This document shows positions 19,914 to 30,932 of a DNA stretch of 64,000 nt, piece by piece. This stretch comes from Candidatus Latescibacterota bacterium (GTDB taxonomy: Bacteria; Latescibacterota; UBA2968; GCA-2709665). Position 1 is the first letter of the stretch. Each line of letters starts with the position of its first letter. The stretch covers positions 1,024,001 to 1,088,000 of the forward strand of contig CBDDDZ010000005.1 in assembly GCA_965226795.1 (NCBI GenBank), in the 5' to 3' direction. Under the pieces are notes generated by a model. It was not told where the DNA came from and did not search any database. It saw nothing but the letters and a program-made list of their open reading frames with translations. Made by a program: the position numbers and the translations under genes.

Positions 19914-20942
19914 TCAACCGGCGGGACCGGAACACATCCGGCAGACGAGTTTTGTAAGGGTGGCGGCGGGTGCACGAGAACGGGACTTCAGGCGGTTATC
20001 CGCGTCCAGGAGCGAGTCGTAAGCGTGCCACAGGTCCTGGTCATCGAAACGATCCGCCTGTTCGAGATAGTTGGAAAGAAAGAAAGGAGGCACCTTCAGT
20101 TTTCCCGCCAGTTCTGCCCGGGGCAGCCCCTGATTCCGGAGCCAGCGAGCCTTACGAAGAATTCCGATATGCCGTATGAGCATCGCGACAACAGCCACCG
20201 GGTTGTCGCCCCGTTCGAGAAGGTGGTGTAGAACCGCCAGGGCATCGCCGGCTCTCCGATTTCCCACGGCATCCGCAAGTTCGAAAACCGTCGCGCTTCG
20301 TAAATCGCCAGCCACCTGGATGACGTCGTCTCGCGTGATGGCATCCCGTCCGTTTGCATATATAGCCAGTTTCTCGAGTTCGCTAACCAGTTCGCCCGGA
20401 TTCGGGCCGACGCCGAGGTGAAGCAGGTGTGCGGCATCAGGTTCAATCCGTTTATTCAGGGCAGCCGCCCGTCTACGAATCCACTCCGGGAGTTCGCTCT
20501 CGTAAGGTGGCTTGAATTCTACCGCAACGGCGTTTTTTCGCAACGCGACGCTGAGTTTCTTGCGACCGTCCAATTTGTCCGCGGTAATAACAAGGACAGT
20601 GGATCCAACGGGTTTGTCAATAAGGGGAAGGAGAGTTCGCGCGTCGGTGTCCCGCAACCGTTCCACTCGTTTGACAACGACAACCCGGCGTGACGCCATC
20701 ATCGGAAAGGCGGTTGCACGGCCGACGGCGTCGGCCACATCCATATCCTCGCCGCGGAAGATATCCAGGTTGAAGGCTCGTAATGTGGGATCGACAGCAG
20801 CGTCGACAAGGGCTTTCAGGCTTTCTTCCTTGCTGACGTTCTCAGTTCCGTGCATCAAATACAGCGGCGCGAATTCGCCCCCTTGAATCTGCGCGGTCAG
20901 CCTATCCTGCGGGTTGCCGGATTTAGCTCTGGATTTGGCCAC
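19914..20942 (-). CDS. holA: DNA polymerase III subunit delta
   Basis: PLYLMHGTE, FPMMASRRVVVV, ELEKL, VFELADAV, D..LK; probable GTG start at 20942. Confidence 0.9.
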   Translation of the reverse strand: MAKSRAKSGNPQDRLTAQIQGGEFAPLYLMHGTENVSKEESLKALVDAAVDPTLRAFNLDIFRGEDMDVADAVGRATAFPMMASRRVVVVKRVERLRDTDARTLLPLIDKPVGSTVLVITADKLDGRKKLSVALRKNAVAVEFKPPYESELPEWIRRRAAALNKRIEPDAAHLLHLGVGPNPGELVSELEKLAIYANGRDAITRDDVIQVAGDLRSATVFELADAVGNRRAGDALAVLHHLLERGDNPVAVVAMLIRHIGILRKARWLRNQGLPRAELAGKLKVPPFFLSNYLEQADRFDDQDLWHAYDSLLDADNRLKSRSRAPAATLTKLVCRMCSGPAG

Positions 20943-21031
20943 GGTCGTGGTAGATGGAAAAGATGCGAAAGATCTGAAAACATGCACGGAACTACTCTGC
21001 CAGGGAGCACTACACCGGCCCAAAGGGAGCG

Positions 21032-21223
21032 CTAACCGTCCAGGTCGCGAAATTCAGCATCCCTGATCCGATTCTTGTTGATGTCCCAGGATGGCTTCTT
21101 GCCGGGTGGACGTGACCCGTCTTTCTGGGGGGAGACCCATCGAAGCGAGGAGCGCAGAACATCCCGAAGTACGCGGTATACGAGACCCAGCAATAAGCCG
21201 AAAAGGAAAATGCGCAACAACAT
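21032..21223 (-). CDS. Small hypothetical membrane protein
   Basis: 63 aa, N-terminal TM helix, C-terminal IRDAEFRDL; GGGAG RBS; fits between purM and holA. Confidence 0.6.
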   Translation of the reverse strand: MLLRIFLFGLLLGLVYRVLRDVLRSSLRWVSPQKDGSRPPGKKPSWDINKNRIRDAEFRDLDG

Positions 21224-21235
21224 AGCGTACTCCCG

Positions 21236-22279
21236 CTAAAGGATTTGAACACCGGAACCCGGGTCGTTGACAACTTCACCCACGACGTAGCCTGTCTCTC
21301 CGTTTCGTCTCAACTGTTCGATCGCTCTTTCAGCCTGACTGGAAGGGACGACAAGCACCAGGCCCAGACCCATATTGAACACACGAAACATCTCGTCGAT
21401 TTCAATGTCGTCGTCCACCTTCTGTAACAGGTTGAATACAGGCAACTCGGGCCAGGTTCCCCGGAAAACACGTGCGCCCAGCCCATCCGGAAGGGTGCGC
21501 GGCAGGTTGTCGACAAGTCCTCCGCCGGTGATGTGGGCCATCCCCCGTACCTGCACGGCTTCCATAAGACTGAAGGCCGATGATACGTAACTCCGGTGAG
21601 GGGCCAGCAGGGCATCGCCGATTGTACCGCCGAGTTCACCCAGGTGGGTGTCGACGGTCCATCCTGCGGTTTGGAAGAAAAGTTTGCGCGCCAGGGCATA
21701 ACCGTTGGTGTGGAGGCCGTACGACGGCAGACCGATGAGCTTGTCGCCCGGCTGTACCCGGGAGCCATCCAGAATTTCTTCCCGGTTGACAATGCCGACG
21801 ATAGTACCCGCCAGGTCGTATTCGCCGTCGGCATAGAAATCCGCCATTTCCGCCATTTCCCCGCCCAGAAGCGCGCAACCGCAGGCTTTACATCCGTTTG
21901 CGATTCCCTCGATGACGGCCTCGGCCACGACGGTGTCGTGTTTCCCCATGGCCAGGTAGTCCATAAAAAAAAGGGGGCGCGCCCCTTGTACAAGTATGTC
22001 GTTGGCGCAGTGGGCCACAAGGTCCGCTCCGACCGTATTGTGGACACCCGTCATAAAAGCAATTTTGAGCTTCGTGCCGACACCATCCGTTCCTGCCACC
22101 AGGACGGGATCCCGGTAAGCCTCCCACTGCGGCGCAAAAAGGCCGCCGAATCCGCCAATGTCCGTGAGTACTTCAGGGCCGAATGTTGATCGTACCAGGC
22201 TGGAGATGCCTTTCTTGGTCCGACTGGCGCTCTCGATATCCACGCCGGCGGCGGTGTATGCGCCTGACTTTCCCTTCAT
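21236..22279 (-). CDS. purM: Phosphoribosylformylglycinamidine cyclo-ligase
   Basis: YTAAGVDI, DGVGTK, GGEMAEM, GLHTNG, HITGGG, FNMG. Confidence 0.97.
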   Translation of the reverse strand: MKGKSGAYTAAGVDIESASRTKKGISSLVRSTFGPEVLTDIGGFGGLFAPQWEAYRDPVLVAGTDGVGTKLKIAFMTGVHNTVGADLVAHCANDILVQGARPLFFMDYLAMGKHDTVVAEAVIEGIANGCKACGCALLGGEMAEMADFYADGEYDLAGTIVGIVNREEILDGSRVQPGDKLIGLPSYGLHTNGYALARKLFFQTAGWTVDTHLGELGGTIGDALLAPHRSYVSSAFSLMEAVQVRGMAHITGGGLVDNLPRTLPDGLGARVFRGTWPELPVFNLLQKVDDDIEIDEMFRVFNMGLGLVLVVPSSQAERAIEQLRRNGETGYVVGEVVNDPGSGVQIL

Positions 22280-22382
22280 AAGGTTACCTTCCATACTTCG
22301 TTTGTAAATTCATAAGGAAGGGGGACAGGGTAAAATGCAGGATTTTCAATCCACCTTACGATAGTGCGACGTTACGCCGGGC

Positions 22383-23348
22383 TCATTCGACTGCGCCGCA
22401 TTTCGACGGTGGGCAATGGGCGCGTTCGTCCGACCTGTTCGCATCGTCTCCCGGTGCAGCACACCCGGCACCGGAGGCCGCAACAATCTCTTCGGCCACA
22501 CGCGCGGCCCGACCGGCTGCTCCAACGTCATGCACGCGTACAATGTGAGCCCCGGCGGCCACGGAGAAACCCACCGCGGCCAGCGTGCCTTCCAGCCTTT
22601 CTTCCGGCGGAAGATCCAGCCGGGCTCCAATGAATTTTTTTCGCGACGGGCCCACCAGCAGAGGGCAGCCGAGATCATGGAGTTCCTCAAGCCGGGCGAG
22701 AATTTCAAAGTTATGGGTATTTCGTTTTCCGAATCCCAGACCGGGGTCAATCAGAATCCGGCCGGGAGCGATGCCGGCGTTGAGAGCTGAGGCCAGGCGA
22801 ACGTCGAGAAAATTGAAAATTTCGCGTATCACGTTGTGATACGACGGTTTGAACTGCATGGTTCGGGGCGTGCCCTTCATGTGCATAAGGACAACCGCGG
22901 CGCCCGATTGTGCGACAGTTTCGGCCATGAGAGGGTCGAAACGCATAGCGCTTATATCGTTGACGATGGATGCGCCCGACTGTATCGCTTTTTGGGCGAC
23001 AGCCGCTTTTGTGGTGTCGGCGGAAATGATCAGGTCTGTTCTGGATGCAATTTCTTCGATCACCGGCGCCGTGCGGCGGATTTCCTCTTCCGTTGAAACG
23101 GCAAGGGCTCCCGCACCGTACGTCCCTGCCGGACGGGTGGATTCGCCGCCCACGTCGATGATATCCGCACCCTCTTCAGCCATCCGTAGCGCACGGGCAA
23201 CGGCCTGTCGCGGTTCGAAATAACGTCCACCGTCGGCAAACGAATCGGGTGTGACGTTAAGAATCCCCATTATCAGGGTTCGTGAGCCCAGGTGGAGGAT
23301 GTTGCCCCGGCAGTCGAGCTGGTGCGTGGGGGAGGTTATGTATCGCAT
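22383..23348 (-). CDS. folP: Dihydropteroate synthase
   Basis: MGILNVTPDSF, GGESTRP, DPGLGFGK, SRKKFIG, RVHDV. Start uncertain. Confidence 0.96.
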   Translation of the reverse strand: MRYITSPTHQLDCRGNILHLGSRTLIMGILNVTPDSFADGGRYFEPRQAVARALRMAEEGADIIDVGGESTRPAGTYGAGALAVSTEEEIRRTAPVIEEIASRTDLIISADTTKAAVAQKAIQSGASIVNDISAMRFDPLMAETVAQSGAAVVLMHMKGTPRTMQFKPSYHNVIREIFNFLDVRLASALNAGIAPGRILIDPGLGFGKRNTHNFEILARLEELHDLGCPLLVGPSRKKFIGARLDLPPEERLEGTLAAVGFSVAAGAHIVRVHDVGAAGRAARVAEEIVAASGAGCAAPGDDANRSDERAHCPPSKCGAVE

Positions 23349-23426
23349 CGGAAATGTGGACATGCAAAAGGGATGGCAAAATGACACGGCTTTTTACCAT
23401 CCCTTCCTGAAATTTAAGTAAAGCGT

Positions 23427-25574
23427 TTACTCTTCGTTATCGGATGCTTCCTGCGATTCGGCTGTCTGTTCGCCCGCGGAAGGCGCGTCCGGCTCCTCGA
23501 CATCGGCGGCTGCATCCTGCCTGCGCCGTCCGTTTTGAGATTGGGACGGTTCAGATGGTTTTTGCAGCTTTTCTCCAGCCAGAATACGGTCGAGTTGGGA
23601 GTCATCCAGCACTTCGAACTCCAGAAGCGCATCCGCCAGAATGTGGACCTGAGCGATATTCTCACGCAGCAGTGTTTCCGCCCGTTCTTCCGCGGCGAAG
23701 ACGAAGTTGCGGATTTCGTCGTCTATGACCTGTGAGACTTTTTCACTGAAATCCCGGCGCTGGGCCAATTCACGACCGAGGAAGATCTCATCCTGTCTGT
23801 TTCCGTAGGATACGGGACCCAATTCCTCGCTCATGCCCCAGTCGCAGATCATCCGGCGCGCCAGGTCGGTGGCCATCTTATAGTCCTGCTGACCGCCGCT
23901 GGAAACTTCCCCGAAGACGATTTTTTCCGCCACCCGGCCACCCAACGCATAAGTGAGAACGGCGTCGCTGTAGCTCTTGGAATAGTTGTGGCGTTCGTCG
24001 ATGGGTAGATACGTGGTCAACCCGAGGGATTGGCCGCGGGGAATAATGGTGACCTTATGCACCGGATCGGCCTCGGGAACGAGTTTGGCCACCAGAGCAT
24101 GACCGATTTCGTGGTATGCCGTACGCTTCTTTTCCGAGTCGGAAATGACCAGACTACGCCTTTCTACGCCCATAATGACCTTGTCTTTGGCATTCTCGAA
24201 GTCATCCATAATCACAGAGGGCCGGTCGTACCTGGAGGCGAGCAATGCGGCCTCGTTGACCAGGTTTTCCAGGTCGGCCTGGGAAAAGCCGGGCGTAGCC
24301 CGTGCGAGAACGGTCAGGTCGACGTCCTTGTCCAACGGGGTATTCCGGATGTGGACTTTCAGCACACCCTCCCGGCCCTTGACGTCGGGCCGGTCCACAA
24401 CCACCTGTCGGTCGAAGCGGCCCGGACGCAGCAGGGCCGGATCGAGGACGTCGGGCCGGTTGGTGGCGGCAATGAGGATGACCCCCTCCTTGGAGTCAAA
24501 TCCGTCCATTTCAACCAGCAACTGGTTGAGCGTCTGCTCCCGCTCGTCGTGCCCCCCCCCGATGCCGGCGCCCCGGTGTCGCCCCACAGCGTCTATTTCG
24601 TCTATGAAGATGATGCAGGGTGCATTGGCTTTTCCCTGTTCGAACAGGTCGCGAACACGGGAGGCGCCAACGCCGACGAACATTTCGACAAAGTCGGAGC
24701 CGCTCATGCTGTAGAATGGTACGTCGGCCTCGCCTGCCACCGCTTTGGCCATATACGTCTTGCCGGTACCCGGCGGTCCGACAAGGAGCACACCCTTCGG
24801 GATTCGGCCGCCGAGCCGCTGGAATTTTCGGGGATCCTTTAGGTACTCGATGATCTCCTGGAGTTCCTGTTTGGCCTCGTCCGATCCGGCAACTTCTTTA
24901 AAGGTGACCTTTGGGCGGTCTTCGGAAAACAGCTTCGCCCTGCTCTTGCCGAAGCTGAACGCACCCTTGGCACCTCCCTGCATCTGACGGAAGATGAACA
25001 GCCAGAGGCCGACGAAGAGCAGCCACGGCAGGAAGTTAAAGAAGACCTTCAACCAGTCGAAGGGTTTTTCCTCGAAGCGGAAGTCGATTTCGTATTTTTC
25101 CCAGTCGGCGATTGCCTCTTCGCCGATGACGCCCAGGTTGACCACAAAGGTGCGATAGGCCTGCTGCTCGCCCCGACTGCTCGTATATTCGGGTTCGCGC
25201 AATGTGCCGTGAAAATCGCTGTCGATGATGATGGCGCTTTCGATCTTGCCCTGTTTCATCAGGGTCCGGTACTCCTTGTAGCTGAGTACGACGTCACCCG
25301 AGCCGGTACTGCTTCCGAAGAAGCGGGTTGCGAAGAGGGCGACAAGTACAAAAAAGACCCAGAATGCAAGCGTTTTTGAGCGCCGCCGCCACTCATGGCC
25401 GTCGTTTTCGGGCGTTGACCCGGGCTCACGGTTTTGCCGTGGGCGCTGTCGGCTTCGCGGGGCCTCCGACGCTTCCGGGTTGTCGTCAGATTCAGGTTTC
25501 AGCTCCGGTACGGGCGGCGATTTTTCTTTCCGCTCCGCAGCCGGGGTTTCTTCCTGGTCTTTACTTTCAGCCAT
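23427..25574 (-). CDS. ftsH: ATP-dependent zinc metalloprotease FtsH
   Basis: Two TM helices, [16 protein letters not shown] zinc motif. Confidence 0.98.
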
Positions 25575-25597
25575 AAAAACCGCCTTGACAATAATAC

Positions 25598-27022
25598 TCA
25601 AGAGGAGGCGATTACGCCTCCCCAGCCACCCTTGAAGGTGATGTCCAGCACCGTTTTCGCCCGATGCGTGACGGCTGTGGACTGGGCCGTGCGCAAGCCG
25701 ACCACCCAGAGAATGGCCTGACCGCCCAGTAGCAGCGGAATTTCGTCGCGCAACGGTCTGGGAATCTTCAGGTTGATAAACAGGTCGCTGATTTTTTGTG
25801 TTCCATTCAGGCCGAACGGTCTGAATCGATCCGCCCGCCGCCGATTTCTCAGAGTCAGCCCGCCGGGAAGTGCATCCCAGTCGAAACAGGCGTGATACGG
25901 ATCGGACGATAGATCGTCCCTTCGCACCTGGCTGGCCGGCCGGATCCTCGTCTCCAGAACCGCGCCGATTTCCGCTATTTCGGTGATGCCCGGAACGGCG
26001 ACCTCGGTCGAGAAAAACGGCGTTGGCCGACTAAGGATCAGCCATGGACTCGAACGATGAGCGGAGATATCGGAAGACACCTGAACCACGCCTTCAGGCG
26101 TCAAACGCAGGGCTTCCATGCGACTGACACTCTGCCCATCAAGCGCACGCGCACAGCCACGAAGACGGAAAAAAGCCGTTTTGAAGATTCGACGCTGAAG
26201 TGCTATATGATAACCGAAAACGGCGTTTTCATCAAGGATTATTTTTCGCCTGCTCTCATAACGCAAGGCCTTTCGATACGCCGATTCCGCCTGCTGGCCG
26301 AGCAGTTGATCTTCCCCCTGGATGATCTCCGCGGACCTGGCCAGGGCCGCTTCAATGGCTGGGTTGTATGCTGAAGCGATCTCCGGAAGAAGATGATGCC
26401 GGATCCGGTTTCGAAGGAAGCGGACGTCGGCGTTGGAAATGTCGTGGCGCACCTGCAGGTTTCGGTGTTCGACATAAGCCTGTATCTGTTGTCGCGAGAC
26501 CGCCAGGAGGGGACGGATCCAGAGACCGTCGCGGATCGGGCGGATCGCGCCGAGTCCGGTTGGACCGGCGCCGCGGACCAACCGTATCAATACGGTTTCG
26601 GCCTGATCGCTGCGGGTATGGCCCAAAGCGATCCGGGAAGCGCCGGTGACGCGCTGGACCCTTTTGAGAAATGCGAGGCGCACGTCACGCGCAGTTTGTT
26701 CAAGAGAACACCCTGCGGGCAGGATCGCCTCTTCGGAGAAGCACGGGAGATCCCTGGTGGCGGCGAGGTCCGTCACAAATTGTTGGTCGGCATCCGACGC
26801 CGGGCCCCTGAGTTTATGGTTGAGGTGGGCGACGTAGAGCGTGATGTCGAGAGACTTCCGAAGCCGGAATAGCACATCCAGCAGCGATACCGAATCCGGG
26901 CCGCCCGATACGCCGATCACTATGCCGTGGCCGGGCCGGATCAATACGTGCCGGTCAATGTACGATCGCATGGCCGGAAGCAGGTCAGGTGTGTCGGAAA
27001 TGGGTCCGGCGTGAGGTTCCAT
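25598..27022 (-). CDS. tilS: tRNA(Ile)-lysidine synthetase
   Basis: SGGPDS, HLNHKLR, GHTRSDQAET, RPLL, RNRIR, TilS C-terminal domain. Start uncertain. Confidence 0.95.
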   Translation of the reverse strand: MEPHAGPISDTPDLLPAMRSYIDRHVLIRPGHGIVIGVSGGPDSVSLLDVLFRLRKSLDITLYVAHLNHKLRGPASDADQQFVTDLAATRDLPCFSEEAILPAGCSLEQTARDVRLAFLKRVQRVTGASRIALGHTRSDQAETVLIRLVRGAGPTGLGAIRPIRDGLWIRPLLAVSRQQIQAYVEHRNLQVRHDISNADVRFLRNRIRHHLLPEIASAYNPAIEAALARSAEIIQGEDQLLGQQAESAYRKALRYESRRKIILDENAVFGYHIALQRRIFKTAFFRLRGCARALDGQSVSRMEALRLTPEGVVQVSSDISAHRSSPWLILSRPTPFFSTEVAVPGITEIAEIGAVLETRIRPASQVRRDDLSSDPYHACFDWDALPGGLTLRNRRRADRFRPFGLNGTQKISDLFINLKIPRPLRDEIPLLLGGQAILWVVGLRTAQSTAVTHRAKTVLDITFKGGWGGVIASS

Positions 27023-27312
27023 GGGTGGAAATCCTGAATCTGCAGAAACGAATGGGCAGGGGGCTTCGCCTTTTTTGAGACGCAACGCCCGGTAAACGCC
27101 TTACGCCCCTCCGCCCGGCGCAGAGTTCCCGGTCACCCCGGGCTAAGAATCTGGAATTGGGATGTTGTATTGTCTATCTGTTTATTAGACGCTGGATAAA
27201 TCGGTTCGGTTTCTGAAAAACCGGACTCGGGATATCGAATCGAGCCTTCGATTGCTTCCTATTCAGCCGTGCCGGATAGGAGATAGACGACTAATGTCAC
27301 CGAAGCTAAGGA

Positions 27313-27350
27313 ACGAAAAAGACACGCTGAATTCAGCGTGTCTTTTTCGT
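27313..27350. terminator. Perfect 38-bp palindrome, bidirectional intrinsic terminator-like
   Basis: ACGAAAAAGACACGCTGAATTCAGCGTGTCTTTTTCGT, 17 nt downstream of the selenoprotein stop, with A/T tracts on both sides. Confidence 0.8.
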
Positions 27351-27367
27351 GAATAATCCGGCGGAAC

Positions 27368-28354
27368 TCAGGGCACGCGTTTGCCGAAGTTCTTTGCGAA
27401 TTCCAAAAAGTCCGGGAAGTCGACCAGACCGTTCCCGTTCAGGTCGTAGGTAATGTTGTTTGTGTTGAAGGCCTGGGCAAAGGCGATGAAGTCTCTGAAC
27501 CCGATTTCGCCGTCACCGTCGAAGTCGGCCCGGGCGTCGCCGTAGACAATGATGGCCGTTCCCGACAGGGTGACGGTAACGCTGCTGTTTTCAGGATCGT
27601 TGCTCAGGATGGTAACGGTGCCGGAGAAGGGGCCGGCATCGGCGGGCGTGAACGTGATTTCGACCGTCGCGCTGTCGCCCGACGCAATCAGTAGCTCGGT
27701 TTGACTGACGGAGGTCCCGTCGAGGTCGGATTGTATGCTGGTAATGTCGAGGTCGTTCCCGCCGGTATTGTGCACCACAAGGGTGAGGGTGTGAGACACT
27801 CCCGCCGGAACGTCCTCACCGAAGTCGAGTGATGGGTTGGGGAGCGTGATAGCTGGCGCCTGAGGGGTTAGCAATTCCCGGATACGCGCCGCCGTGGCGC
27901 TAAGACCGGAAGTCGTGCGCCCCCCGATGTGGCGGATGATCCCTGCTCGGTCCGCGACCAGCAACGTGTGGACGCCGCGGGAGGTCTGAATCTTGCCGCT
28001 GGCCTGCAACAGGAGCGGGAATGTGACCTTGGTCGTTGCTTGAAAGCCTTCCAGTTGCGACTTGTTGCCATTATATAGGTCAAGCCCCAGGACCGTTACG
28101 CCATCGTCCTGGAACGCCTTCCAGATCTGCTGTTCTATGGACGGACCCGCCCCTATGCATGTGGGTCAGTTATGGCCCAGAAAATAGAGGACTAAGACAC
28201 TGCCCTTGTAATTCGCCGGGGTGTAGGTTTTTCCATCCAACCCCGTAAGCGAGAAACTGGGTACCGCGTCGCCGACTTCCTGTGCTTCCGCGGGTCCCAA
28301 CGGGTAGAGTCCCAGGAGCAGCAGGAACACGACGCACGTAGCGATTCGACTCAT
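27368..28354 (-). CDS. Exported selenoprotein: redoxin (TlpA/AhpC-TSA-like, UxxC) + Ig-like (ASH/choice-of-anchor D-like) + twin EF-hand/dockerin-like domain, 328 aa
   Basis: AAAGGAGG RBS and signal peptide MSRIAT...AEA; in-frame TGA (28166-28168) in FLGHN-U-PTC; the frame stays open and redoxin-like (IWKAFQDDGVTVLGLD...TFPLL) into ORF 27368..28009; SECIS-like hairpin follows the TGA. Confidence 0.85.
28136..28165 (-). promoter_or_regulatory. Bacterial SECIS element
   Basis: After UGA: CCCACAUGCAUAG-GGGCG-GGUC-CGUCC; stem starts ~13 nt after UGA with a GGUC apical loop, as in E. coli fdhF. Confidence 0.75.
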
Positions 28355-28388
28355 CGCAATCCTCCTTTGAGAGAGTGTGTGGTCTGCG

Positions 28389-29972
28389 TCAGAAATGGGT
28401 TTTGAAACGCATTTCAAGACCGTTGAATGGCAGCACCTGATAGCATGTACCCGAAGTACATGCGACGCCGCCACGCCTGCGGCCGGCAAAAACGAGGGCT
28501 TCGTATCGATCGAGAAAGCGGACGTTCAGATTGACCGCCAACCAGGTGCGCGTCCCGGTCTCGATCCCATCCGACGTTGCGCCATCGTCCACTTCAAACG
28601 GATCGTCCGTGCGGTCCAGAACGAGGGCGGCGCCCACGCCGGACGGATGCTGGAATGAGAACTGGGTAAAGACATCCAAGAACGCCGGTTCGTTTCGTGG
28701 TAGCCTGGCCGCGCGCCGAACCTGCAGATCGACACCCACGACAGATCCGCCGGGTGTAATGGATTCGACCGCTGTGCCAGCGGTTCTGTGTTTCCCGATC
28801 CCCTTCAGTTCGTTTTTTCCCCAGTCGACGAACAGGTTGATTGAGATTGCGTGGCCCCGATCTTCGGACGGTAGGTCGACGTCCACGCCTAAGTACCGCT
28901 CGTTGAAGGTTTTCTCGAAGCCGGGCGCCAGCTCGTTCTCTCCCTTGCTTATGTTGGCCGTCAGCGTGCCCAGGCCGAATAGCGTATAAGTGGCTTCCGC
29001 CTGATAGCCCTTTTCGGTATCGGCAAGCACGGCGTGGGTAGATCTGTTGAGTAGCACGGCCGAATGTTCACGAACCAGGGATGGGGGATCGTTGAAACTG
29101 AAGGCGAAATTCTGATAGTCCTTGTATTCCAGGCTCAGGCCCAGGTTGGAAATACCGGAGTTGGCGGAAAGATAGATGGCGCTTCCGTCCACGTGAATGT
29201 CTTTCAGCCCGGCGTATTCGGCGTAGACAGCCGCGTAGGCGTCCGGCAGACCGGCTGCTTCTAATGCCGGAGCCATATCGAGTTCCAGGAATCCGGACCA
29301 TGTGAGGGTGGAGTCGAGCCTCCCGGCGTGATGGCTGACGGCGGTTACACCCGTTTTGATCGGGTTGGTGGGACGCAGCGAGATCTCGCCTCCGAGAAGC
29401 CAGTTGTCACGTCGCGGTACATCACGAAGCGGATTACCCACCCGCACCGCAGGCGGAACGTCACCCAATACGGGTCGTCCGATCAGGGCTCTGGCCTCGG
29501 TCCGCGGCCCCGCCCAGGTGGCTATGCCGCCCTCCAGGTCTCGCGATGGCGAATAGCGACGCCGGTATTGAGCGCTCTCCAGTATTACCCCCGGGAGATC
29601 GAAGGCCCTGAGCGTGATTCCCCGGCCCAGGATGGCGTAGTAGTTGCCCGTAACCAGTTCGGTGGGTCCGTTTGTCCATCGCAGGTGCTTCTGGGCAATA
29701 TGAACCACTCGGTATTCAACCTGCGACAGGCGCGAGCCGGGACCGATGTTGCGCCATGTGTTGAAAATTTCGGCCCGGAAACCGGCCTGGATCCCGTGCT
29801 GGATGTAGTCGACATCAAACTGTTCGTAAAGGTTGGAAACCGCAAGCGAATCCACGCCCGGTACCCGCCCGCGCTGCAGTTCGGTCAGGCTGGAAGCTGT
29901 AACCTGTGCTGCGGCGCGGTCGGCCATAAGGACAAGAAAAAGCGTCGCCAGTCTATTTATCGGCACGCGCAT
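28389..29972 (-). CDS. DUF6029-like outer-membrane beta-barrel with C-terminal Cys pair
   Basis: Signal peptide, GNYYAILGRGITLR, LEYKDY, C-terminal RRRGGVACTSGTCYQVLPFNGLEMRFKTHF ending in Phe. Confidence 0.75.
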   Translation of the reverse strand: MRVPINRLATLFLVLMADRAAAQVTASSLTELQRGRVPGVDSLAVSNLYEQFDVDYIQHGIQAGFRAEIFNTWRNIGPGSRLSQVEYRVVHIAQKHLRWTNGPTELVTGNYYAILGRGITLRAFDLPGVILESAQYRRRYSPSRDLEGGIATWAGPRTEARALIGRPVLGDVPPAVRVGNPLRDVPRRDNWLLGGEISLRPTNPIKTGVTAVSHHAGRLDSTLTWSGFLELDMAPALEAAGLPDAYAAVYAEYAGLKDIHVDGSAIYLSANSGISNLGLSLEYKDYQNFAFSFNDPPSLVREHSAVLLNRSTHAVLADTEKGYQAEATYTLFGLGTLTANISKGENELAPGFEKTFNERYLGVDVDLPSEDRGHAISINLFVDWGKNELKGIGKHRTAGTAVESITPGGSVVGVDLQVRRAARLPRNEPAFLDVFTQFSFQHPSGVGAALVLDRTDDPFEVDDGATSDGIETGTRTWLAVNLNVRFLDRYEALVFAGRRRGGVACTSGTCYQVLPFNGLEMRFKTHF

Positions 29973-30489
29973 CGGCGTTTGCCTCGTCGTCTCCGGGCTT
30001 GGAAAAGAGCGACTCTACTGCGGCCAACAACGCATCGGCATGTTTCGAATTGTATCCGACCTGCCTGAGCGCGATCTCGCCATTCTGCGTGATCAACAGC
30101 GTGGTTGGCAGGACATTGACCTGCATCCGCCGCATCACGGCGCTGTCGGAGTCGAGTGCGATTGGGAAGCTGACCTTTCGCGCCCGGAGAAAGGGTTTCA
30201 CCCTGTTCTGCCCGCGTGGCCCGTCCACGTTGACGCCAAGAACCGTGAGTCCGGATTTGCCGTATTTCTCGTGAATCTTCTGAAGCTTGGGCATCGCCTT
30301 GACGCAGGGCTTGCAATAAGTTGCCCAGAAATCCAGAAGTACGGGTCCTTTCGTGAGCAGGGCTTTGAGGTTGACCCGTTCGCCCTGCAGGTTCCGAAGG
30401 TTGAAGTCGGGCGCGGTGGCGGCATGTGTGGAAACGTCGCCGAGGGCGATCGCAAAGAATATAATAAACAATACGCGATTCAATTTCAT
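29953..30489 (-). CDS. TlpA-family periplasmic thiol-disulfide oxidoreductase
   Basis: Signal peptide, APDFNL, DFWATYCKPC, VLPTT cis-Pro loop. Confidence 0.92.
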   Translation of the reverse strand: MKLNRVLFIIFFAIALGDVSTHAATAPDFNLRNLQGERVNLKALLTKGPVLLDFWATYCKPCVKAMPKLQKIHEKYGKSGLTVLGVNVDGPRGQNRVKPFLRARKVSFPIALDSDSAVMRRMQVNVLPTTLLITQNGEIALRQVGYNSKHADALLAAVESLFSKPGDDEANADARADK

Positions 30490-30586
30490 GGGTAAAATCT
30501 CTTCGCTGGACTGCGCTGGGATAAGTGCAATGTAATTTATGCGTTAGATGCCGTGACGTCGCCGGGGTTTCAGGCCCGGGCCTCCC

Positions 30587-30646
30587 CGATTCGACGCAAA
30601 TTGCGTCGAATCGCTTAACAATAACCGAAAACTACCGCCATATCAA
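30587..30646 (-). promoter_or_regulatory. Sigma70-like promoter with 27-bp palindrome at the predicted TSS
   Basis: Minus strand TTGATA (30646-30641), 17 bp, TATTGT (30623-30618); palindrome CGATTCGACGCAA-A-TTGCGTCGAATCG at 30587-30613. Confidence 0.55.
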
Positions 30647-30932
30647 GGGCGATTTTACCCTTCCGGAACTCCGCCGGGCTGCGCGGCAAGGCGTATGCCA
30701 GCGGCTGTATGCCCGGAAGCCACGAAAGACGGACATCCATACGCAATTGGCCGGAATCACCTGGCGCCCGGATGTTTACAGGCCGTGGCAGCAAGGGCTT
30801 TGCGGGTGGGAAAGTGCCCGGTCAATCCGGTTTGTCGGACTGCCGGGACGCGCCGAAATAAGCTGAAATGCCTTGGTGCAAACGTGGGCAGCGCATGCAA
30901 CGAAGACCTCATTCCGGTCGATCCATTTCCGC

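Follow-up and report, generated by a model that had tools for sequence, protein, structure and literature searches.

The window analysed here, a stretch of 64,000 nucleotides from the genome of a Candidatus Latescibacterota bacterium (contig CBDDDZ010000005.1), contains three adjacent genes that encode, in order of transcription, a thiol-disulfide oxidoreductase of the ResA/TlpA fold (hereafter TlpA), a predicted outer-membrane beta-barrel of family DUF6029, and a redoxin that is predicted to contain selenocysteine (Sec). Their coordinates and those of the associated features are listed in Table 1. The evidence tips modestly towards an interpretation of the three-gene module as a thiol relay across the outer membrane, in which reducing power would pass from DsbD to TlpA, then to a cysteine hairpin of the barrel, and finally to a redoxin on the cell surface. 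Close relatives of the barrel (78-88% identity) are mostly labelled Candidatus Latescibacterota.

The original prediction, made from the nucleotide sequence, had placed three co-oriented, tightly packed genes between a promoter and a strong terminator, and had assigned a signal peptide and a redox motif to every product. The packing is exactly as described, with an overlap of 20 bp between the TlpA and barrel genes and a gap of 34 bp between the barrel and redoxin genes; the motifs are CKPC in TlpA, C505-TSGT-C510 in the barrel and UPTC in the redoxin; and all three N-termini, judged by eye, are signal-peptide-like and have no lipobox. The terminator is a perfect inverted repeat with a folding z of -6.9 to -7.6 relative to shuffled sequences, and it is absent from the list produced by a consensus terminator scan. 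Of the promoter, only the existence of a matching site was borne out: three promoter-like sites were found where 2.4 +/- 1.7 are expected, which is the chance level. RNA contigs, which show neither strand nor a single transcript, cover 27476-30590 without interruption in one run and most of that stretch in two pieces in two further runs, with no cover at 30623-30823; contigs start at 30564 (X1) and 30590 (X2), and no variant at the redoxin TGA is listed in any RNA run.

Table 1. Features of the three-gene module, and the second type of cysteine-bearing barrel (L and G numbers denote loci and genomes; ORF, open reading frame; SECIS, selenocysteine insertion sequence; Ig, immunoglobulin)
Feature	Position	Strand	Remarks
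ResA/TlpA-fold thiol-disulfide oxidoreductase gene	29953..30489	(-)	178 aa, signal-peptide-like start, WATYCKPC; barrel-dedicated subfamily that includes Porphyromonas gingivalis PG_2175 (PDB 2M72)
TlpA active site C59-K-P-C62	30304..30315	(-)	C59 within predicted barrel interface
TlpA subfamily signature D89-G-P-R92	30214..30225	(-)	opens loop/helix at core of predicted barrel interface
DUF6029 outer-membrane beta-barrel gene	28389..29972	(-)	527 aa, ends in Phe; 24 strands predicted
Barrel hairpin C505-x-x-G-x-C510	28443..28460	(-)	last extracellular loop (predicted), after conserved RRGG
Selenoprotein redoxin gene	27368..28354	(-)	328 aa with TGA 28168-28166 read as Sec; GHN-U-PTC
U63-P-T-C66 motif	28157..28168	(-)	in-frame TGA at 28168-28166
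Bacterial SECIS-like hairpin	28139..28152	(-)	5 bp, 4-nt loop; 17-30 nt from first base of TGA
Ig-like domain (HYDIN/ASH, choice-of-anchor D)	27557..27850	(-)	domain match
Dockerin-like EF-hand tail	27386..27532	(-)	common to 90 ORFs of the window's genome
Sigma-70-like promoter match	30618..30646	(-)	9 of 12; not above chance
Intrinsic-terminator-like hairpin and U-tract	27312..27349 (about)	(-)	perfect inverted repeat
PF13557-type Cys-Cys barrel	L168:8352-9260 (G037); L170:3183-4124 (G039); L177 (G065)		302 aa

The periplasmic reductase and the barrel

TlpA has the site features of ResA/TlpA/CcmG reductases, namely a WATYCKPC motif of the WxxWCxxC type, the invariant cis-proline and a TM-score of 0.88-0.90 to ResA, and it is likely to be periplasmic. 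Its scores do not reach the NCBIfam equivalog or subfamily cut-offs (106 against 170 for ResA, 53 against 230 for TlpA); therefore, by sequence, it is placed in a separate subfamily within these reductases. The best solved match of the subfamily profile is PG_2175 of P. gingivalis (150.9 bits, the next being 110). Across 168 genomes of the phylum, the subfamily was found in 100, every one of which has the barrel, and in none of the 65 barrel-negative genomes. All five tested genomes of the phylum Bacteroidota with no TlpA gene adjacent to the barrel keep an unlinked copy of the subfamily (160-168 bits, the next match at most 98.5). In one genome (G070) the TlpA-barrel pair occurs twice (C1:1133355 and C1:3200784), with scores that are the same or nearly so, through either a recent duplication or an assembly artefact.

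The barrel passes the cut-off of PF19494 (DUF6029) with 45.3 bits against 27, over residues 52-124 only, and PF19494 is present in all 69 of its protein-search matches and in 26 of 30 Atlas matches. C505 and C510 are its sole cysteines, and loss of conservation of this C-terminal pair would have told against a redox role; CxxGxC is kept in 68 of 70 protein-search barrels (query included). Of 145 loci where the C-terminus is complete, 144 have it; 60 loci were recovered solely through their profile score, and 59 of these are among the 144. The structural model (pLDDT, predicted local distance difference test, 88.7) consists of 24 long strands that fill residues 22-526, with the cysteine pair, as originally proposed, in a predicted outer-membrane barrel: the hairpin lies between strands 23 and 24, in a block with a pLDDT of 76 versus 89-95 on either side. 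Two other long loops, L3 (112-145) and L7 (288-319), are conserved. There is no DsbD-type helical domain in the barrel (no match to PF02683, and the model is all-beta). It is very improbable that the pair is a structural disulfide of a Wzi-like polysaccharide or solute porin, beside which the neighbouring genes would be a folding aid or a chance occurrence; in its favour, one study (PMC9603273, in the part available) reports that Wzi-like barrels encoded close to genes for polysaccharide export are similar to DUF6029.

When a complex of barrel residues 23-527 with TlpA residues 25-160 was predicted from purpose-made alignments, the score was 0.69 (0.69, 0.68 and 0.70 in separate runs), compared with 0.01 for the best control; the mark applied to this score, which is only roughly valid for such alignments, is reached by 116 of 157 solved pairs and by 2 of 215 mismatched pairs. 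The runs share at least 87% of their contacts, and the pLDDT of the partner is at least 75. The contacts with strands, 38 in number and spread over 17 of the 24 strands, are confined to the periplasmic half of the barrel; the remaining barrel contacts involve turns on the periplasmic side, loops L3 and L7, and residues T506-T509 at the tip of the hairpin. On the side of TlpA, the interface includes C59, the strand before the cis-proline, and the subfamily signature from D89 onward. In the predicted complex, then, TlpA sits in the periplasmic mouth of the barrel while an extracellular loop, bearing the cysteine pair, reaches down to meet it. The passing score is unlikely to reflect a memorised structure, because no solved sequence relative of the barrel was found and its best fold matches have only about 10% identity.

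The predicted geometry is also relevant to a different reading, in which the channel formed by the barrel together with TlpA is gated by redox state or is itself redox-active. The hairpin would stay in the lumen, where it would gate the channel or reduce incoming small molecules (disulfides, polysulfide, selenium or metal species), with no direct hand-over of electrons to the surface redoxin, the only link being a small-molecule shuttle or shared regulation. A hairpin that reaches the periplasmic vestibule, as predicted, may be shielded from the outside by L3 and L7. This reading is unlikely, and further evidence on it comes from the gene neighbourhoods considered below.

The selenoprotein redoxin and its export

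The third product is not Omp28: a signal-peptide-like start precedes a domain of the AhpC-TSA/ResA type, in which UPTC is found, and the protein continues with an Ig domain and ends in a dockerin-like tail. The Omp28 families PF11551, NF033782 and NF045500 gave no match at an E value of 0.01. The redox domain, which stays below the cut-off of every NCBIfam family, has a profile nearer to ResA (49 of 54 members) than to peroxiredoxins (15 of 54), and the closest solved relative is 2LS5 from Bacteroides thetaiotaomicron.

The presence of Sec in this protein is well supported by sequence comparison, because cysteine takes its place in orthologues (L013, L046, L047, L079 and others), a SECIS-like hairpin is conserved, and the genome encodes Sec machinery: selA (562.6 bits) and tRNA-Sec (73.6 bits) are located about 2 kb apart. 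Of 61 distinct UGA sequences, 59 have a SECIS-type hairpin at a distance of 13-34 nt from the codon; of 18 sequences with a cysteine codon, 2 have one. The UGA set is richer in G+C (0.68 versus 0.51), yet the difference persists as a z relative to shuffled sequences (-1.84 versus -0.07). Taken alone, the hairpin of the window is weak (z -1.7; 0.43 over 46 nt). Three redoxin-like stretches (G000 C3:27939-28331, C3:20490-20855 and C4:882515-882943) have the same residues around an in-frame TGA; they are repeated copies with no cysteine three residues after the TGA. Tandem redoxin repeats are frequent (L009, L046/L047, L052, L079, L098, L102, L108; G041, G046, G048, G052, G054), and they pair Cys with Sec versions, or lipoprotein with type IX secretion system (T9SS) versions.

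The C-terminal tails of the redoxins bear on their location. Among 96 orthologues in loci L006-L125, 11 were incomplete and 85 could be classed: 57 tails are T9SS-like, 18 dockerin-like, 8 lipoprotein-like (6 by pattern, 2 by eye) and 2 of other kinds. The tail profile was built from the same loci, and therefore eight orthologue tails were checked against NCBIfam, of which seven pass TIGR04183. The window's genome encodes SprA and nine PorV-family proteins over the cut-off, 12 ORFs with a T9SS-like tail, and 90 ORFs with a dockerin-like domain, 61 of which have it at the C-terminus and the other 29 at another position. Judging from these sequences, redoxins of the family are likely to be exported beyond the outer membrane, and the orthologues suggest the same for the copy in the window. 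The dockerin-like double EF-hand domain swaps with T9SS tails on orthologous redoxins, and is possibly a lineage-specific sorting or anchoring tag. In one redoxin (L014:3783-4421) a short C-terminal tail replaces the T9SS or dockerin domain, possibly as a third kind of export tag.

Gene neighbourhoods and the proposed relay

Judged by the barrel, the module is widespread, with 103 positives (one spurious at E 1e-3) among the 168 genomes of the phylum and 80 among 301 genomes of the Bacteroidota phylum. The redoxin family was found in 110 of the 168 genomes; all three parts are present in 99, and neither barrel nor redoxin in 54. The gene-neighbourhood survey that had been suggested as a check showed co-occurrence that extends across phyla and survives rearrangement: where loci L006-L125 have at least 1200 bp on both flanks, all 68 contain TlpA and at least 60 of the 68 a second redoxin gene, whether upstream or downstream of the barrel, divergent from it or convergent with it. 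The pairing of TlpA and DUF6029 beside Omp28-like genes in Bacteroidota, which the original prediction had mentioned, was likewise found, TlpA being present in 23 and an Omp28-like CxxC gene in 25 of the 29 Bacteroidota-phylum loci with flanks of at least 1200 bp. Omp28 takes the slot of the third gene only in Bacteroidota loci. A small exported protein of about 235-255 aa recurs beside TlpA in six Bacteroidota loci (L131, L135-L137, L143, L165); the two copies scanned have a T9SS tail, and by position alone the protein recalls PorA next to PG2175-PG2173 of P. gingivalis.

These neighbourhoods bear on the channel reading in two ways. In favour of the channel, TlpA keeps more strictly to the barrel (100 of 100 genomes) than the redoxin does: 11 genomes have the redoxin where no DUF6029 was found, and in genus g11 the redoxin gene is unlinked to the barrel. 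Against it, genes of two exported CxxC families (the window's redoxin family, and Omp28 in Bacteroidota) recur next to the pair even where inversions have occurred.

Bacteroidota loci of the module often have T9SS cargo genes alongside, an arrangement that lends something to the idea that the same wire serves an opposite purpose, with electrons flowing inward so that disulfides of T9SS cargo are oxidised or isomerised, or external thiols feed the periplasm. The presence of PorA as a neighbour in P. gingivalis, according to the available text of PMC13744359, points the same way. Inward flow is nevertheless improbable, given the ResA/TlpA fold of the periplasmic partner and the gene order at one locus (L127:1-1468), where the genes for TlpA and the barrel are immediately followed by one for DsbD, and Omp28 is divergent. 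It counts further against inward flow that proteins of the ResA/TlpA family are kept reduced by DsbD/CcdA.

The outward relay across the outer membrane would proceed in five steps. DsbD, a full copy of which is encoded elsewhere in the window's genome, would reduce TlpA, as its family suggests. TlpA, docked as predicted, would then reduce C505-C510. The hairpin of the last extracellular loop, folded into the lumen behind the RRGG hinge, would move outwards or be accessible from the vestibule on the outer side, and might then re-reduce U63-C66 of the surface redoxin. The redoxin, to judge from its ResA-like profile, would most likely reduce or repair thiols of secreted surface proteins rather than act as a classical peroxiredoxin. 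One barrel may serve several interchangeable surface redoxins, which would be of the window's family or, in Bacteroidota, Omp28. The passage of electrons from TlpA through the barrel's cysteine pair to a surface selenoredoxin, the central idea of the original prediction, is thus supported in part: its inner half has the support of the model, because the cysteine pair is conserved, the genes co-occur, and TlpA is predicted to dock on the hairpin, while the outer half remains hypothetical.

Several points weigh against the relay. The genomes are related, so that their counts are not independent, and the profiles were built from neighbours of the barrel; for these reasons the informative parts of the survey are the absence of the TlpA subfamily from barrel-negative genomes and its retention in all five genomes where it is unlinked. 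When redoxin-only genomes were searched again for DUF6029, four gave no match and one gave weak matches only, and B. thetaiotaomicron, the source of 2LS5, is among 14 control genomes without a DUF6029 match. DsbD adjoins the barrel in just 1 of 150 loci, most of which have short flanks. As for the predicted complex, the barrel rows of its alignments were chosen for having the cysteine pair, and its controls did not include a paralogous TlpA; C505 and C510 are not among the named contacts, only four residues lying between them, and no contact pair list links C59 of TlpA directly to the hairpin. Interface residues of TlpA are no more conserved than the rest (0.53 versus 0.53), the corresponding values for the barrel being 0.48 and 0.41. 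Finally, the redoxin of the window has no T9SS sorting domain TIGR04183, and the dockerin-like tail in its place scores 28.7 against a cut-off of 29.

A second, unrelated cysteine-bearing barrel occupies the same gene slot in two genomes in which no DUF6029 was found (G037, G039), where two Sec redoxins of the window's family are followed by a PF13557-type barrel and then by a Sec-bearing TlpA-like gene. In a third genome (G065), the PF13557-type barrel is beside TlpA and the start of a DUF6029 gene. A C-terminal tail that ends in Cys-Cys is present in 15 of 16 homologues of this barrel, and it is absent from the nine distant PF13557 paralogues looked at and from two in the window's genome. 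The PF13557-type barrel may replace DUF6029, which is the pattern expected if one cysteine-bearing barrel is swapped for another; this is only a lead, because just 3 of the 168 genomes have such a barrel.

Relation to known systems and significance

The proposed module resembles DsbD, CcdA and ScsB in that a membrane protein with one cysteine pair would have a thioredoxin-fold partner on each side; the one in the periplasm has the ResA/TlpA fold. The Cx4C spacing of the barrel hairpin is also that of two DsbD N-domains in the window's genome, a resemblance only; a second DsbD N-domain (L156, G000 C5:1473974-1474306) is located at the end of a long ORF, with no DsbD membrane domain nearby. In contrast to DsbD, ScsB and CcdA, which are helical inner-membrane carriers (PMC5403849, in the part available), the carrier of the module would be an outer-membrane beta-barrel with a proposed acceptor outside the cell. 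The MtrAB porin-cytochrome uses a haem wire, whereas the module would use two-electron thiol chemistry: none of its three proteins has a haem-binding CxxCH, and identity to MtrB (PDB 6R2Q) is 5%. In its chemistry the proposed module would thus recall DsbD and in its layout MtrAB, and it belongs to neither system.

The best fold match of the barrel model is to the fimbrial ushers FimD/PapC, which have 24-stranded barrels as predicted here. The 527 residues of the window's barrel include neither a plug nor periplasmic usher domains, there is no usher Pfam match, identity is 8-10%, and no pilin or chaperone genes were seen near the barrel. It is decidedly improbable that the barrel exports or displays the redoxin or Omp28 in the manner of an usher, with TlpA keeping the cargo or the barrel reduced during export.

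Some Bacteroidota loci match the order of PG2175-PG2174-PG2173-PG2172 in P. gingivalis, of which the first encodes the thioredoxin, and the last two are listed as Omp28 and PorA in the available parts of PMC13744359 and PMC4335976. The second product, PG2174, is entered in PMC13744359 as a 65 kDa protein of the outer membrane that is uncharacterised and occurs in vesicles. This locus differs from that of the window in that the surface partner is Omp28 and not a Sec redoxin, and PG2174 is a candidate DUF6029 protein by gene position, not by sequence. No published function for PG2174 was found in the literature searched, on which supplements (mutant-fitness and interaction tables, bioRxiv) could still bear, and the searched text of two PorA papers does not mention these neighbours (PMC8754138, PMC7712824). 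UxxC in an AhpC-TSA-type fold is of a known kind, represented by Prx-like selenoproteins (pfam00578) of marine metagenomes, for which the sorting tails and the link to a barrel, features of the window's redoxin family, are not mentioned in the available part of that study (PMC2398784). To this picture the window contributes a Sec redoxin family whose export tails are swapped, counts at the level of genomes, and the Cys-Cys barrel. No description of such an outer-membrane thiol relay was found in the literature searched, which left out most subscription papers.

Elsewhere in the window, 19914-27085 contains tilS (by Pfam) followed by ftsH-, folP-, purM- and holA-like ORFs (by eye), and an apparent 16S rRNA gene (by eye) is at about 36300-37900.

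In diderm bacteria, thioredoxin-fold enzymes and selenocysteine enzymes are secreted past the outer membrane, and the thiol relays known to us end in the periplasm; how such surface enzymes are recharged is the question that the module addresses, by naming a carrier, a donor, the residues to mutate and a geometry. If the relay is true, it would be a previously undescribed means of moving reducing power through the outer membrane. The chances are about even that the outer-membrane counterpart of DsbD, so far missing, is to be found in DUF6029 barrels, with a swinging cysteine hairpin that would link a docked periplasmic thioredoxin to surface Sec or Cys redoxins, and that the job has been solved twice, the PF13557-type Cys-Cys barrel being included. 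The proposal seems testable in P. gingivalis, where the structure of the TlpA protein has been solved, and the relay, if true, would give functions to both DUF6029 and Omp28.

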